From Planctomyces sp. (GTDB lineage: Bacteria; Planctomycetota; Planctomycetia; Planctomycetales; Planctomycetaceae), in contig SXPC01000069.1 of NCBI GenBank assembly GCA_005778225.1, forward strand, positions 3,806 through 67,805: a stretch of DNA of 64,000 bases, written 5' to 3'. Within the stretch, counting starts at the first letter, position 1, and each line of letters starts with the position of its first letter. Shown in pieces: positions 19,978-58,973 of the stretch. The notes under the pieces are model-generated. The model worked only from the letters and a program-made list of their open reading frames with translations. It was not told where the DNA came from and did not search any database. Made by a program: the position numbers and the translations under genes.

Positions 19978-20032
19978 AGTGGCAACGGTCGGATTCGAAC
20001 CGACGACCCGCGGCTTATGAGTCCGCTGCTCT
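19978..20032. repeat. attL: 55-bp direct repeat of tRNA 3' part
   Basis: Identical to 58919-58973. Confidence 0.95.
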
Positions 20033-20130
20033 CGCTACATGATGAGCTAGACCTAACTTCCAATTGTGCTTAGCATCCGACCTTTCGCGATTCATAATTC
20101 AGGAATTCTACTTCGGAAGGAACCGAAAAA

Positions 20131-20574
20131 ATGAGCGGCTCGGATGCCATTCTCGTCACCCAAACGCCCGACGGAAAAACTGCTGATGACACCAGATTCA
20201 TTCTCGAAGACAAACACGGCGAGTTGGTCGAACGATTGACCACGTCTCGCGATCCTCGCCCGGTCGACTCAATTCCCCGCTGGCGGCCAGCTCCCCCGCT
20301 GCCAATGAAAGAGACGATCGCTGAGCCCGTCCCACGCGAGATCACCGACGAGCTGAAAGTGAAGCCTTGGGATCTGATGAACCGTGAGGAACGCCGGGCT
20401 CTCAAAAGGCTGATTCGACGCACGGAGAACGCCCGTCCCAACCTCGAAGATATCGAACAGATGGCGAAGTCTTTAGGCCTCGGCAAATACGCGACGCCAG
20501 AGATGATGAAGCCAATTCGTGCTGTGGTAATCGACGAGATTCACGACGGAAAACCACTCGCGCAGGCTGCGTAA
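20131..20574 (+). CDS. Prophage hypothetical protein
   Basis: AAGGA RBS; 147-aa ORF. Confidence 0.6.
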   Translation: MSGSDAILVTQTPDGKTADDTRFILEDKHGELVERLTTSRDPRPVDSIPRWRPAPPLPMKETIAEPVPREITDELKVKPWDLMNREERRALKRLIRRTENARPNLEDIEQMAKSLGLGKYATPEMMKPIRAVVIDEIHDGKPLAQAA

Positions 20575-20736
20575 TCATGACGGATCCCACGGTCAAAATG
20601 CTGGCCAGGATTCTTGGACCGTTTCCAAAAATCCGCCCCAGACTCACAGCGCGGAAGATCCCGGCCAGCGTCCTACGCCGCCGGGCTCGCTTCTTCGCAG
20701 CTCTCACACGGAAGCGATGAGCAAAGGAATCAAACC

Positions 20737-20907
20737 ATGACGGTTTGTGACAAACACGGCAACGAAGATCCGCCCGACCCATACGACGGCCGTCCGGATT
20801 GGACACCCGCCGACACCGCGTTTGAAAGTTGTTTCTGGTCAATCAACGCTGACCTGGTCGCGATGATTCTGGCCGTCATCCTGGTTGTCATTTTTGGATG
20901 GAGTTGA
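20737..20907 (+). CDS. Small membrane protein
   Basis: AAGGA RBS; C-terminal TM helix. Confidence 0.5.
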   Translation: MTVCDKHGNEDPPDPYDGRPDWTPADTAFESCFWSINADLVAMILAVILVVIFGWS

Positions 20908-20909
20908 GA

Positions 20910-21365
20910 ATGGATTCTTTGTCATTGAAACGAGTTTTGCCGGGCTCTCGATATGCAGTCCGATTCACAAAGAGTACTTGGTTTGCAGAGCCAGGTGACG
21001 AATGCGTTTTGGTTTGTGACAGCATCCATCACGACACGCCACAATGGCATCTGGAAAACGAAGAAGACGTAAAATTTCACACAGACAGAAAGAGTACCGA
21101 GCAGTTGGACTTCGAGTTCATTGCCGGCCCGCTGCCAGTTCCAGAGAACACCGAGCGTCAAACTTACTGGTATGAGAACCCATTCAATATTTTGCTGATG
21201 GCAATCCTTATCGCGATCATCCTGACCGAGATCAACCAATGCTTTCACCATCTGAACAGCTCGAAAGAACCACAGCCTTCCACGAACTCGGTCCGCTTGG
21301 TGTCGAGCGACTGCCAGTCGTTCGACCCAACTGGATCGATAGCCGAACCTGGATGGAGATCGTAG
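20910..21365 (+). CDS. Hypothetical membrane protein
   Basis: ORF directly after previous stop; one TM segment. Confidence 0.5.
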   Translation: MDSLSLKRVLPGSRYAVRFTKSTWFAEPGDECVLVCDSIHHDTPQWHLENEEDVKFHTDRKSTEQLDFEFIAGPLPVPENTERQTYWYENPFNILLMAILIAIILTEINQCFHHLNSSKEPQPSTNSVRLVSSDCQSFDPTGSIAEPGWRS

Positions 21366-21498
21366 CTAACAGTACGAAGACCAACCTCGTCTCGACGCTC
21401 ATTGAAAATGCTTTGCTCGCCTTCCGAATTCGGAGAACCGCCGAGCTGTTTGAGAAAGCTTTCTTCGTCGGCCCCGTTCACTTCCCAGGATTGCTGTC

Positions 21499-21771
21499 GT
21501 GCCCCGGTCAAATCTCAAACGAGTCGTCGTTCAATTCGACCCAATCGAGCGATTCTGGAAGGTTTCTTCGGCTCCACCACTCGTTCAACGTCCGGCAACC
21601 CTCACCCCGTTCGGAGAGTTCTGCCGGAACGTCCTTAGCGCACAGAATGCCTTCCAGCGGTTAGCCGACCAGATGGAACCGTGGCACGTCCGAGACCGTC
21701 GGGAGCGTCTGGAACGCCTCTCGGACGACTTCCAAGCCTATGTGCTTTCATGCTCTCAAAACGTCGCTTGA
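21499..21771 (+). CDS. Hypothetical protein
   Basis: 90-aa ORF; overlaps alternative ORF 21239-21664. Confidence 0.3.
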   Translation: MPRSNLKRVVVQFDPIERFWKVSSAPPLVQRPATLTPFGEFCRNVLSAQNAFQRLADQMEPWHVRDRRERLERLSDDFQAYVLSCSQNVA

Positions 21772-21860
21772 TACCCCCCCCCACCCATTGTCCGAGAAAA
21801 ATCACGGAACACGCCCGGGCGGTTTCCGTGTAATTTTCCTAAGTTTTACGACCCCCCTAT
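21771..21860 (-). other. Candidate cos (packaging) site
   Basis: GGGGGGTCGTAAAACTT...GGAAACCGCCCGGGCGTGTTCCGTGATTTTT...G-run; dyad CACGGAA-N14-TTCCGTG. Confidence 0.45.
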
Positions 21861-22042
21861 CATGAGCCATGTGTCACGACAGATGTGTCGTGTATTTGGG
21901 GGGTCAGGTCGTGAGTCGGGAGTCGCGACACTTTGGTCGTACATCCGAAGATGAAATGACGACCGACTCATGAGATTTGAGTCGGTCGGATCATCAAAGC
22001 ATTGATGAGATCACGAGCATGTTGCCATTGTCGGCACACTAA

Positions 22043-56822: not shown

Positions 56823-56959
56823 CCCATATCTCGCGCAGAGCCGCGCGTGTCTGTCAGCAGGACAGTGAAGAAAAAGCAACTCGCTCCTAATGTGTGGTGG
56901 ATGGTCTCCCGCACTTTCTGCTCGTCAAATTCTCGTGTGAGTGAGATATAGAATGGACC

Positions 56960-57718
56960 TTAATTCAAATTTGCAGATAGGCGAAACAACATGGCGTTGG
57001 TTGCCTGCTGATCGACTAAAGTCATCGAGCCATCCGGATGATGAATTAGTATGGCCGCGGTTTTTCCCATCCGACGCTCCACCAGTTCGATACTTTGTTT
57101 TAGATCTTCCCTGGACTCAATCAGAATCGGGGCATAGCCTTCCAAACCCTGCTCTTCAATGGTCTGTCTGGCGATCTCTTCTGCGGGGAATACACAGATG
57201 CATAATGGGGGAAACTCACCGCCTCCCATAGACAGCACTCCCTCTTTCCTTCGCTCTTCATTTCGGAATCCCGCCAAGTAGCAGGGGAAACTCAGGCGAA
57301 CGGTTTCCGTCCCGTCGGAGTGTTTTTGCTGCAACGAAAATGAGTCCATCAACGATGCCAAGTAGGGTGGCAACGGACGCTCGACATACAGGAGCGAGTA
57401 CAGCGATTGTTCGATTGTGAGAAGTAGCCGATCCTTCGATTTATCAAAGGGATCGATGATGAGATGAGTTACTTGCGGAAACCGCATCATGACACTGGCT
57501 ATCCACCCGGTCAGGTCGCAGTGATTCTGGATTTCATAGAGAAACTCGTTGTTCCGAATCCGGGTCTCTTGACTTCGCGATGTGAAGAGGAAGACAGCAT
57601 GACGGTCTTCCCCTATGTTGTTGCTTGCAAACGGTGCACTTGTCAGAATCTCGGAAGAGTGTTCTTTCAATGTGACAAAGTACATCGGCACGCGCACGAC
57701 TTGCTGCGATTTTTTCAC
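56960..57718 (-). CDS. Accessory hypothetical protein
   Basis: GGAG RBS; 252 aa. Confidence 0.6.
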   Translation of the reverse strand: MKKSQQVVRVPMYFVTLKEHSSEILTSAPFASNNIGEDRHAVFLFTSRSQETRIRNNEFLYEIQNHCDLTGWIASVMMRFPQVTHLIIDPFDKSKDRLLLTIEQSLYSLLYVERPLPPYLASLMDSFSLQQKHSDGTETVRLSFPCYLAGFRNEERRKEGVLSMGGGEFPPLCICVFPAEEIARQTIEEQGLEGYAPILIESREDLKQSIELVERRMGKTAAILIHHPDGSMTLVDQQATNAMLFRLSANLN

Positions 57719-57795
57719 TTAAGCGGACTCCATTTCCAAATCTGACCGACGTTCGCTTCTTTTCCCCGTCGTCCATCCTAGTAAAAAGGTCAGCT

Positions 57796-58146
57796 TCACT
57801 GCCGACCCGCTAAACTCATTTGCTGTACCTTCCAGTCGAGGTAAGGCTGCAGGTCAACGATCATCTGGTGATAGCCCTCGGTCGTCTGGAGGCACTCGAT
57901 GTGTTGCCAGTGGTGCTGGTCATCGAAGTAGAACAGCGGGATTTTTGCCTTCGGAACTTTGACAGCGACTTTGCCTTGAGGAAGAGCGCGAGTGTCGCGA
58001 TTAGCGGCCGCTTCCAGTGTGGTTGCGTGTCCCAGTACGGTCATAATCAAGTGATCAAGGTCCTGATACTCTGGTCGCTCAACAGCCTCCGTGATGAGTG
58101 ACCAATCCAGATGGAAGACATGATTTTCGTATGCCAGGGTGACCAT
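57796..58146 (-). CDS. Accessory hypothetical protein
   Basis: GGAG RBS. Confidence 0.6.
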   Translation of the reverse strand: MVTLAYENHVFHLDWSLITEAVERPEYQDLDHLIMTVLGHATTLEAAANRDTRALPQGKVAVKVPKAKIPLFYFDDQHHWQHIECLQTTEGYHQMIVDLQPYLDWKVQQMSLAGRQ

Positions 58147-58245
58147 GGAAAAACTCCAACTCGGTCAAGCCAGCCTTGGCAGGTTGCTCGCCGCATTTTT
58201 GCACGCGATGCTTCCGTAAAACTCAAAGACAAACGGGCAACAAGA

Positions 58246-58641
58246 CTATTTTGGTTTGTTAGGTGGTCGGTGGTCGTCGTCGACGTACTCTTCCCTCGGT
58301 CCGAGTGTCGATTCCAGATCCTGCAAGTCTTTGTCATCGTCGCGAGTGACGAAGATCAGCGCTTCGATTGGAGCAATAACCGCCGTCTCACGGCCGGGAC
58401 GGCGGATATTCTCCATGTGTTCACGAGGCTGATGCGGAATATGAACCACTCGATCGACTCGGAAACAAAGTCCATGGTATGACGGACTCAAGTACTCGCC
58501 GACAACTGGCAATCGCGGAAACGGATAGACCGGATCTTTTAACGGTGGAACTTTGCATTCCTTCTCCGTCCAAGTCTTTGTTAATCGAACCATCGCATAG
58601 GTTCGAACTTCTGAGGCATACTCCGTGCGCTCTTCGCTCAT
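58246..58641 (-). CDS. Accessory hypothetical protein
   Basis: 131-aa ORF; FPRLPVVGEYL motif. Confidence 0.55.
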   Translation of the reverse strand: MSEERTEYASEVRTYAMVRLTKTWTEKECKVPPLKDPVYPFPRLPVVGEYLSPSYHGLCFRVDRVVHIPHQPREHMENIRRPGRETAVIAPIEALIFVTRDDDKDLQDLESTLGPREEYVDDDHRPPNKPK

Positions 58642-58748
58642 TTACTTCTCTTCCATGGGAAAGCAAATCCGTGGAGCTTCGCATCCCAGCGAAGTGGCAT
58701 AGCAGCCAAGATTGAAGGCGTCGTTCTTGACGCCAAACAAAAAGACAA

Positions 58749-58827
58749 ACGGGCAGCGAGAGATATCCAGGCTACTTATTCAAAAGCCCCGAGGAGAGTC
58801 ACCTATTCCCCGCTTCTCGCCGCCCGT
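58749..58827 (-). ncRNA. Putative three-way-junction RNA next to attR
   Basis: 13-bp closing stem ACGGGCGGCGAGA/TCTCGCTGCCCGT, GUGA-capped hairpin, second hairpin, U-rich tail. Confidence 0.45.
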
Positions 58828-58918
58828 GTGATCCTTTTTACGGTGGCGCAGCGGATTTATAGTCCGCAGCGCCAATCAGGTCGTATTTTCGAGAGTAAAG
58901 CCTTCCGCAGAAGGACTT

Positions 58919-58973
58919 AGTGGCAACGGTCGGATTCGAACCGACGACCCGCGGCTTATGAGTCCGCTGCTCT
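58919..58973. repeat. attR: 55-bp direct repeat
   Basis: Identical to 19978-20032. Confidence 0.95.

Follow-up and report, generated by a model that had tools for sequence, protein, structure and literature searches.

A reversed pair of predicted DNA-binding proteins as a candidate lysogeny operon in a Planctomyces temperate phage without a CI-type repressor

To our knowledge, detailed accounts of how lysis and lysogeny are controlled exist for no more than a handful of phage types, and such control is almost unexplored in phages of the host group studied here. In phage lambda, the short immunity operon cI-rexAB is set against lytic genes across a divergent region, with cro and the early genes as its divergent partner, and the CI type of repressor is defined by an N-terminal XRE helix-turn-helix (HTH) and a C-terminal, LexA-like S24 domain for autocleavage. 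The lambda late genes are preceded by a Q-binding element, the promoter PR' and the terminator tR', the promoters of coliphages 186 and P2 face each other within ~60 bp, and the Mu repressor c, MarR and BlaI form a group of repressors with winged-helix domains. Here we describe a 64,000-bp stretch of the genome of a Planctomyces sp. (GenBank assembly GCA_005778225.1, contig SXPC01000069.1, positions 3,806 to 67,805; the whole stretch is referred to as the window), in which positions 19978-58973 are occupied by an intact-looking temperate phage of the siphovirus type, with an HK97-type head, integrated in the 3' end of a tRNA-Met gene via a tyrosine integrase. The phage has no repressor of the lambda CI type, and we propose from its sequence, with a probability of roughly 55%, that a reversed two-gene cassette at 47945-48775 is its lysogeny (immunity) operon.

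An initial annotation, made from the letters of the window alone, had found no XRE-HTH/S24 repressor in the phage. This held when the whole assembly was searched in six frames with hidden Markov models (E<=1): no match to HTH_3, HTH_31, HTH_17, RHH_1 or Peptidase_S24 was found in the contig that contains the window (C46). The same searches gave many matches elsewhere in the genome and in control genomes, and the sole Peptidase_S24 match in the genome, on contig C112, is presumably the host LexA. Both defining domains of the lambda CI type are absent from the phage, and, the cassette aside, no DNA-binding family was found in the other open reading frames (ORFs) of the element scanned with Pfam or PHROGs.

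The same annotation saw no divergent cI/cro pair, and here it has to be revised. In the map of ORFs and coding scores, all plausible genes of the element lie on the minus strand except six ORFs, four of which are at the attL end; the other two, which make up the cassette, are alone within the phage backbone in lying on the plus strand. The cassette faces away from the first late gene across a region of 194 bp (47751-47944), and a plus-strand pair of HTH genes thus diverges from the late operon. Its genes are the two ORFs, at 47945 and 48524, in which the annotation had allowed that a CI-like repressor might turn up. Both encode proteins predicted from sequence and structure models to bind DNA, with a sigma-region-4-like HTH in the first and a winged helix in the second, and both belong to families outside Pfam.

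The first protein, P0001 (179 residues; 47945-48484, plus strand), is modelled as an N-terminal beta-hairpin, a long helix and a C-terminal HTH resembling region 4 of sigma factors (approximately residues 76-150), and the predicted local distance difference test (pLDDT) score is ~90 over residues 80-145, which hold the HTH. P0001 has no Pfam match of its own; its relatives match HTH_23, HTH_31 and, weakly (E 0.015), Sigma70_r4_2. When residues 76-150 were compared with known structures, sigma region 4 accounted for 13 of the first 16 VIA-align rows (Z 5.3-6.2), including SigR, SigW, SigH and SigF, and the structural neighbors in the Atlas agreed. No match to Sigma70_r2, the region of core binding and -10 recognition, was found for P0001 or its relatives. 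Since region 2 is missing, P0001 is not a sigma factor. It also departs from sigma-70 in its distinctive N-terminal beta-hairpin, in a helical insert of ~65 residues carried in the window phage, and in the neighborhood of its chromosomal homologs. Small proteins with homology to the C-terminal half of P0001 occur in 55 of 300 genomes from the host's family, and the Atlas cluster of these homologs, the sole pointer obtained here to the phylum of the host, is annotated Planctomycotota. The chromosomal homologs (L015-L021, for example L015 29-1767) are ~105-140 residues long, have the same N-terminal MSVMN motif and HTH, and are encoded in a conserved block of three genes, the other two specifying a ParB_N-domain protein and an ABC/SMC-like ATPase.

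The second protein, P0002 (83 residues; 48524-48775, plus strand), is predicted to be a winged HTH protein. Its AlphaFold model has the order H-H-H-beta-beta (three helices and a wing) with a pLDDT of 82-87 in the core, and Foldseek aligned it (probability 1.0, TM ~0.6) with the winged helices of the MotA N-terminal domain, BpsR, ZitR, MexR, MepR, CggR and BlaI, the best match being the T4 MotA activation domain. The sequence profile of P0002 matches Z-alpha and MarR-family chains in the PDB. No Pfam winged-helix family was matched at E<=0.01, and the Atlas search gave language-model neighbors only. The H-H-H-wing fold of P0002 superposes on the domains of MarR, MepR, ZitR, CggR and BlaI, which likens it to the Mu c, MarR and BlaI group; unlike the MarR-type repressors, however, P0002 is only 83 residues long, has no dimerization or ligand domain, is a member of no Pfam family, and has sequence relatives confined to a handful of phage contigs.

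Word-indexed searches returned nothing for P0002 and only itself for P0001, and it was the exhaustive and profile searches that gave relatives. The exhaustive search found four relatives of P0002 among 1.8 billion representatives (best 3e-13, 47% identity) and the profile search gave seven, and P0001 is 30% identical to the partner protein in L022 (1e-14). Because of these homologs, at 3e-13 for P0002 and 1e-14 for P0001, we consider both genes real. A predicted complex of P0001 and P0002 scored 0.00, which is uninformative either way.

The cassette recurs in at least seven other phage lineages (L022; L023/L030; L024-27; L028/29; L031/32, L039 and G218; L040/G010; G016). Two of these are prophages integrated in genomes of the host's family, namely G010, to which L040 corresponds, and G016. 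Every contig or prophage with a P0002 homolog has a P0001 homolog immediately upstream, and the two genes often overlap by 4 bp. In all cases with visible flanks, the pair runs opposite to the genes on either side: it diverges from the first late gene and converges with the last early one, and the 3' ends at the convergent junction abut or overlap. The layout holds despite a different head module in L024-27 (Phage_portal_2 and GpA terminase in L024) and despite unrelated early genes: CsrA and the cassette are kept, and no other early gene is conserved across these phages. The closest metagenomic architecture is that of L028/29, where int, small ORFs and CsrA are followed by the cassette and then by C92, HNH, the small and large terminase subunits (TerS and TerL) and portal. 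The int gene, CsrA, the cassette and the whole late module are common to the window phage and the G010 and G016 prophages. We obtained these close relatives by searching whole genomes of the host's family; TerL searches of viral and genome collections gave relatives of <=30% identity without useful synteny.

Two of the relatives carry cargo on the same strand after the cassette. In L028 (10326-15545) this cargo consists of an N6/N4 methylase (MTase_II) and a HATPase_c_3 protein of 756 residues with a weak REase_II match, and in G010 (L048 310-5018) of a C-5 methylase and a HATPase_c_3 protein, the HATPase_c_3 proteins of the two being 655-756 residues long. Cargo resembling a restriction-modification system needs to be on in the lysogen, as rexAB is behind cI in lambda.

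The 194-bp divergent region contains a palindrome (GCAGCTGC, 47870-47877), a TTGACG-N8-TTGACG repeat around the palindrome on the minus strand, and a 12-bp inverted repeat (47769-47780 and 47873-47884) that makes up a closing stem enclosing a terminator. The minus-strand RNA of the region folds with z = -5.1. The terminator itself is a hairpin on the minus strand at 47830-47863, just upstream of the late genes, with a 15-bp stem, a UGGA loop and a U-run. We found the same terminator layout in L024 (9619-9651), L030/L023 (L030 743-775), L031/L039/G218 (L031 538-569; L039 9603-9634; G218 contig C89 19105-19138) and L040/G010 (L040 ~9540-9575), where an A/T-rich hexamer, a lineage-specific palindrome, TCAAnGG, an NGGA-loop hairpin and a U-run make up the conserved layout. 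Across six sequences, 96% of the cells of the upper stem are paired, seven of the eight pairs have compensatory changes and the GGA of the loop is invariant; slid controls fall to 21-38%. The hairpin is thus an intrinsic terminator, a GC-rich stem-loop with a U-run, conserved as a structure in five further lineages, and in a scan of the window for GGA-loop hairpins with a T-run it alone was outstanding.

The palindromes of the different lineages (GTCGAC, GTTAAC, CAGCTG and TCGATCG) lie at the same spot, upstream of the terminator, and differ in sequence, the pattern expected of immunity-specific operators, and on this basis they are candidates for such operators. The recognition helix was considered as a guide to the protein that binds the palindrome; its sequence does not cleanly track the palindrome across the lineages and thus points to neither protein as the binder. 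An 11-bp motif, TTTGACGCAGC, proved to be local only.

GGA in a hairpin loop is the recognition motif of CsrA, and the early operon of the phage encodes a CsrA protein (53415-53696, minus strand; PF02599, 77.7 bits against a gathering cut-off of 27; phrog_9500), which has a CsrA/RsmA domain by this score. Its Pfam match begins at residue 6, a methionine, which suggests that translation starts at ATG 53681. CsrA orthologs are found in the L024 and L028 contigs and in the G010 and G016 prophages. CsrA and the GGA hairpin co-occur imperfectly: L028 has CsrA without this form of hairpin, and L030 has the hairpin and no CsrA in the 11 kb available. The remaining contigs are too short to be judged for CsrA, and the L024-type contig, which ends 360 bp past CsrA, is too short to be judged for an integrase. 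From these sequences, the GGA-loop terminator and the phage CsrA may together form a CsrA-controlled early/late boundary, although we know of no case in which CsrA acts on a phage late terminator.

From sequence, predicted structure and synteny, the basis of all statements on function made here, we infer the expression of the cassette in lysogens, its repression of other genes, its binding targets and whatever part CsrA plays. In the lysogen, the cassette would be transcribed rightward from the 47751-47944 region, and one or both of its proteins would bind this region, with the palindrome and the TTGACG repeats as candidate operators. The leftward operon of lysis, packaging and structural genes would be silenced by this binding, and the cassette proteins would also hold the early operon off, directly or indirectly. 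Upon induction, early transcription from upstream of int would run through the early genes and converge on the 3' end of the cassette, where interference is possible, and would then halt at the GGA-loop terminator (47863-47830) unless this is overcome. The late genes would be turned on by derepression of a local promoter, by read-through of the terminator, or by both, and the phage CsrA, an early product, is a plausible read-through factor.

This proposed switch has likenesses in the described systems. As in lambda, a short operon is set against lytic genes from a divergent region, and in some relatives defense-type cargo lies downstream. Unlike lambda, the window phage has neither XRE HTH_3 nor S24, has two predicted DNA binders instead of one, has the late/lysis operon rather than cro and the early genes as the divergent partner, and has no visible route of SOS-linked induction. 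As in coliphages 186 and P2, the early genes and the candidate immunity operon converge, with 3' ends that abut or overlap in every lineage examined, and by analogy this arrangement would allow transcriptional interference. It differs from 186 and P2 in that whole operons converge here, and the repressor families are unrelated. By the same analogies, we infer that the arrangement may work functionally like an immunity region of the lambda, Mu or P2 type.

Several observations weigh against assigning the cassette to lysogeny. The gene across the divergent region encodes a lysis amidase and no Cro-like early regulator, and the early operon, which a repressor would also have to silence, starts 9 kb from the cassette. 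No operator motif common to the 47751-47944 region and the int leader was found, no notable 9-mer of the cassette/late region recurs in the int leader or in other intergenic sequence, and no confident promoter call was possible. L028 keeps the cassette without the palindrome and the GGA-hairpin form, its hairpin loop being CUCCUC. The cargo next to the cassette may only reflect a convergent junction that tolerates insertions. On the side of the proteins, neither P0001 nor P0002 reaches Pfam thresholds, the coding scores of both genes are low, and the structural matches are of modest strength (Foldseek E 4e-3 to 5e-2; VIA Z ~6). With neither an S24 domain nor an antirepressor family in the phage, no route of induction is visible.

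The cassette could instead be a pair of transcription factors of the lytic cycle, a late activator or a Q-like antiterminator that would load at the palindrome and carry RNA polymerase past the GGA-loop terminator, with the true repressor among the unassigned small ORFs. A reversed transcription factor pair beside a late leader that bears a terminator would suit this role as well: as at the lambdoid PR'-tR' region, the terminator lies between a regulatory region and the first late gene, beside a palindrome, and it is conserved. P0001 is similar to sigma region 4, which makes contact with RNA polymerase, and the best Foldseek match of P0002, the T4 MotA activation domain, is a binder of sigma region 4. 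About a dozen early ORFs without a family would leave room for another repressor. However, genes for late activators and antiterminators normally point in the lytic direction, whereas the cassette is reversed in every lineage examined, and in L028 and G010 it is co-oriented with the restriction-modification-like cargo that is needed in the lysogen. Neither Q, N nor another antiterminator family was found in any ORF scanned with Pfam or PHROGs, and the element offers no other DNA-binding candidate. We therefore consider a lytic role of the pair unlikely. Further differences from the lambdoid late region are the invariant GGA of the terminator loop and the CsrA encoded by the phages.

The initial annotation itself concluded that lysogeny is held by a non-canonical mechanism of CsrA and leader RNA. 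Under such a mechanism no protein repressor would be needed, and RNA structures (the int leader or RNA near the tRNA), translational control by CsrA, or both would maintain the lysogen. The int and late leaders are indeed structured to an unusual degree (z = -4.9 and -5.1), CsrA is a conserved gene of the phage group, the covarying hairpin with its invariant GGA loop is a possible CsrA target, and a CI-type protein is absent. On the other hand, CsrA lies inside the early operon, which runs in the lytic direction, so that it would be made when this operon is on rather than off, and the GGA hairpin is located at the early/late boundary, which points to the timing of late genes; the putative CsrA target would thus sit at a plausible place for late control and not at the step of lysogeny maintenance. 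The sequence of the int leader of the window phage shows no conservation with its counterparts in G010 and G016, and no Rfam family matches any of the leader RNAs. Two conserved predicted DNA-binding proteins occupy the classical position of a repressor, and since such an antiparallel pair is conserved, a protein repressor of an unusual family is the more economical reading. The step from a missing CI to control by CsrA or leader RNA is therefore unsupported, and we regard maintenance without a protein repressor as improbable.

The boundaries of the element fit an intact-looking phage. The left attachment site, attL (19978-20032), is a 55-bp copy of the 3' end of tRNA-Met, that is, a 3' tRNA fragment with a partial tRNA match at 19988-20049. 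The attR core (58919-58973) makes up the 3' portion of a minus-strand tRNA-Met(CAT) gene (58920-58994), which is intact. The two 55-bp repeats are identical, and their starts are 38,941 bp apart. In the complete genome G008 of the same genus, the flanks 16548-20032 and 58919-60412 are contiguous, with 91-95% identity and an overlap of exactly the 55-bp core, which is single-copy there. This empty attB shows that the 38.9-kb element is a discrete and recent insertion. With att repeats in a tRNA gene, an integrase, terminase, portal, capsid and tail genes, and a discrete insertion relative to its kin, the element is an integrated temperate tailed phage (a Caudoviricetes prophage). What the initial annotation had said of the body of the phage is thus confirmed: the perfect repeats and their distance agree with the tRNA gene and with the empty site in G008, the complete look of the phage with its full structural and packaging set, the uninterrupted head, tail and packaging genes with the finding that all are open and recognizable by Pfam and PHROG, and the integrase at the head of the early operon with its place as the first ORF past a 583-nt leader.

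Other tRNA genes lie ~1-2 kb beyond int in the related prophages of sister genera (Phe in G010, Asp in G016), and these are possible attachment sites; prophages at different tRNA genes would fit an active family of temperate phages, as expected. That the element is a defective or domesticated prophage which needs or has no switch, its reversed genes being leftovers or regulators serving the host, agrees with the failure to assign a replication protein, a holin or an excisionase among the element ORFs scanned with Pfam and PHROGs, but given att repeats still identical over 55 bp, a recent integration, open structural genes throughout and relatives near different tRNA genes, we consider it very improbable.

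The late operon, on the minus strand, reads from the cassette in the order amidase, 429-residue protein, 139-residue protein, HNH endonuclease, TerS, TerL, portal, protease, capsid, adaptor and neck proteins, tail proteins and methyltransferase. The first three genes (45359-47750), encoding a C92/YiiX-like amidase (phrog_1128 at residues 43-208) and the proteins of 429 and 139 residues, are probably the lysis genes, and amidase orthologs in L028, L040 and G010 match PF05708. The amidase gene probably starts at ATG 47750, which is in frame and has a G-rich ribosome-binding site, rather than at ATG 47849 of the longest ORF, which falls within the terminator hairpin; the family match starts at residue 43. 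It is the start at ATG 47750 that leaves 194 bp between the late gene and the cassette. A 129-nt direct repeat (45239-45367 and 45760-45888; 77% identical, 521 bp apart) lies between the HNH gene and that of the 429-residue protein.

The HNH endonuclease (44317-45120; PF01844; phrog_2323, 2e-25) adjoins the terminase genes, and the HK97-type capsid, S78 prohead protease, portal, TerL and TerS are encoded at 37684-44265 (PF05065, PF04586, PF04860, PF03354 with PF20441, and PF05119). The neck and connector genes at 34712-37044 encode tail completion, head closure and head-tail adaptor proteins (phrog_5, phrog_25, phrog_442, phrog_40), and are followed by the tail assembly chaperones and the major tail protein at 33240-34679 (phrog_344, 1.2e-10; phrog_158, 1.2e-5; Phage_TTP_11, weak) and by a tape measure protein of 843 residues at 30369-32900 (phrog_1533, 9.5e-66; PF10145, 3.5e-42). 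Five genes for distal tail or host-recognition proteins (287, 641, 1023, 175 and 316 residues) at 22903-30369 are long open frames with good coding scores and without a family, only the 287-residue protein having a PHROG match (phrog_1084). The last gene of the late operon, at 22043-22882, encodes an N6/N4 DNA methyltransferase (PF01555, 2.9e-21; PADLOC MTase_II, 9e-50).

On the early side, the tyrosine integrase gene (55300-56376, minus strand; PF00589, 4.7e-12; phrog_1, 2.9e-26) encodes a protein 42% identical to the integrase of the G010 prophage, and is preceded by the long, structured, non-coding leader at 56377-56959 on the same strand. Leaders of comparable length precede int in G010 (L048 10055-10570) and G016 (L051 12631-13219), where both contain a promoter-like block (TTGCAA-17-TTATCT/TTATTT) and, after it, a CCACCC...GGGTG hairpin. 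The leader of the window phage has diverged from these in sequence; it is of comparable length and likewise has a hairpin at its start. From int, the early operon (48777-55224, minus strand) continues with small ORFs, CsrA, an acidic-repeat protein of 385 residues, DUF5131, DUF4326, DUF1643 and more small ORFs to 48777, and about 8 to about a dozen of its ORFs have no family in the Pfam and PHROG scans. Within the gene of the 385-residue protein, a 34-nt motif occurs in three copies that overlap at a spacing of 21 nt (52826-52901) and encode an Asp/Glu-rich tract. We considered this protein as the counterpart of a protein of ~370-410 residues with a weak Crp-type winged-helix match that follows CsrA in the relatives, and discarded the idea as there is no similarity between them. 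The G010 and G016 prophages have a tRNA gene between the integrase and CsrA (Met, L048 8537-8608; Cys, L051 14496-14572); no internal tRNA was found in the window phage.

Both ends of the element carry further ORFs. Between int and attR, three ORFs of 252, 116 and 131 residues (56960-58641, minus strand), with a terminator at 57808-57787, had no match in Pfam, PHROG, PADLOC or PDB scans and are probably cargo. At the attL end, four plus-strand ORFs of 147, 97, 155 and 90 residues (20131-21771), taken from the coding-score map, have no Pfam match, the 147-residue ORF has no PDB sequence match, and these ORFs are possible cargo. We considered whether one of the ORFs of 131, 116, 252 and 147 residues might be an overlooked repressor; with no match in Pfam or the PDB and no counterparts in the related prophages, they were taken as cargo. 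A 27-nt direct repeat (58219-58245 and 58735-58761; 85% identical) lies upstream of each of two attR-proximal ORFs and may represent a regulatory or RNA element common to the block. Outside the phage, at 13159-13246 and 17962-18037 of the window, a palindromic element of ~38 bp (GTGCCACGGCTGTGTCAGCCGTG...) that looks like a repetitive extragenic palindrome has many sites genome-wide and is also scattered in a relative of the same genus, often as inverted pairs.

The winged helix and the sigma-region-4-like HTH are each common folds. In the libraries and literature searched, we found no match for the pairing of the two folds as a conserved cassette, for the position of such a cassette directly against the late operon, or for its occurrence together with a GGA-loop terminator and a phage-encoded CsrA. 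It is conceivable, though doubtful, that an immunity operon of a region-4-like HTH and a winged helix, together with CsrA acting on the invariant GGA of the terminator loop, forms a new regulatory backbone of this phage group; if so, CsrA, an RNA-binding translational regulator, would work as a timer of early-to-late (anti)termination. The covarying GGA-loop terminator and the conserved CsrA make a direct test case for CsrA control of termination in phage development. The conserved, family-less pair in the position of a repressor is a concrete and testable candidate for the switch, and the cassette can serve as a marker for related prophages that an annotation based on CI would call repressor-less.

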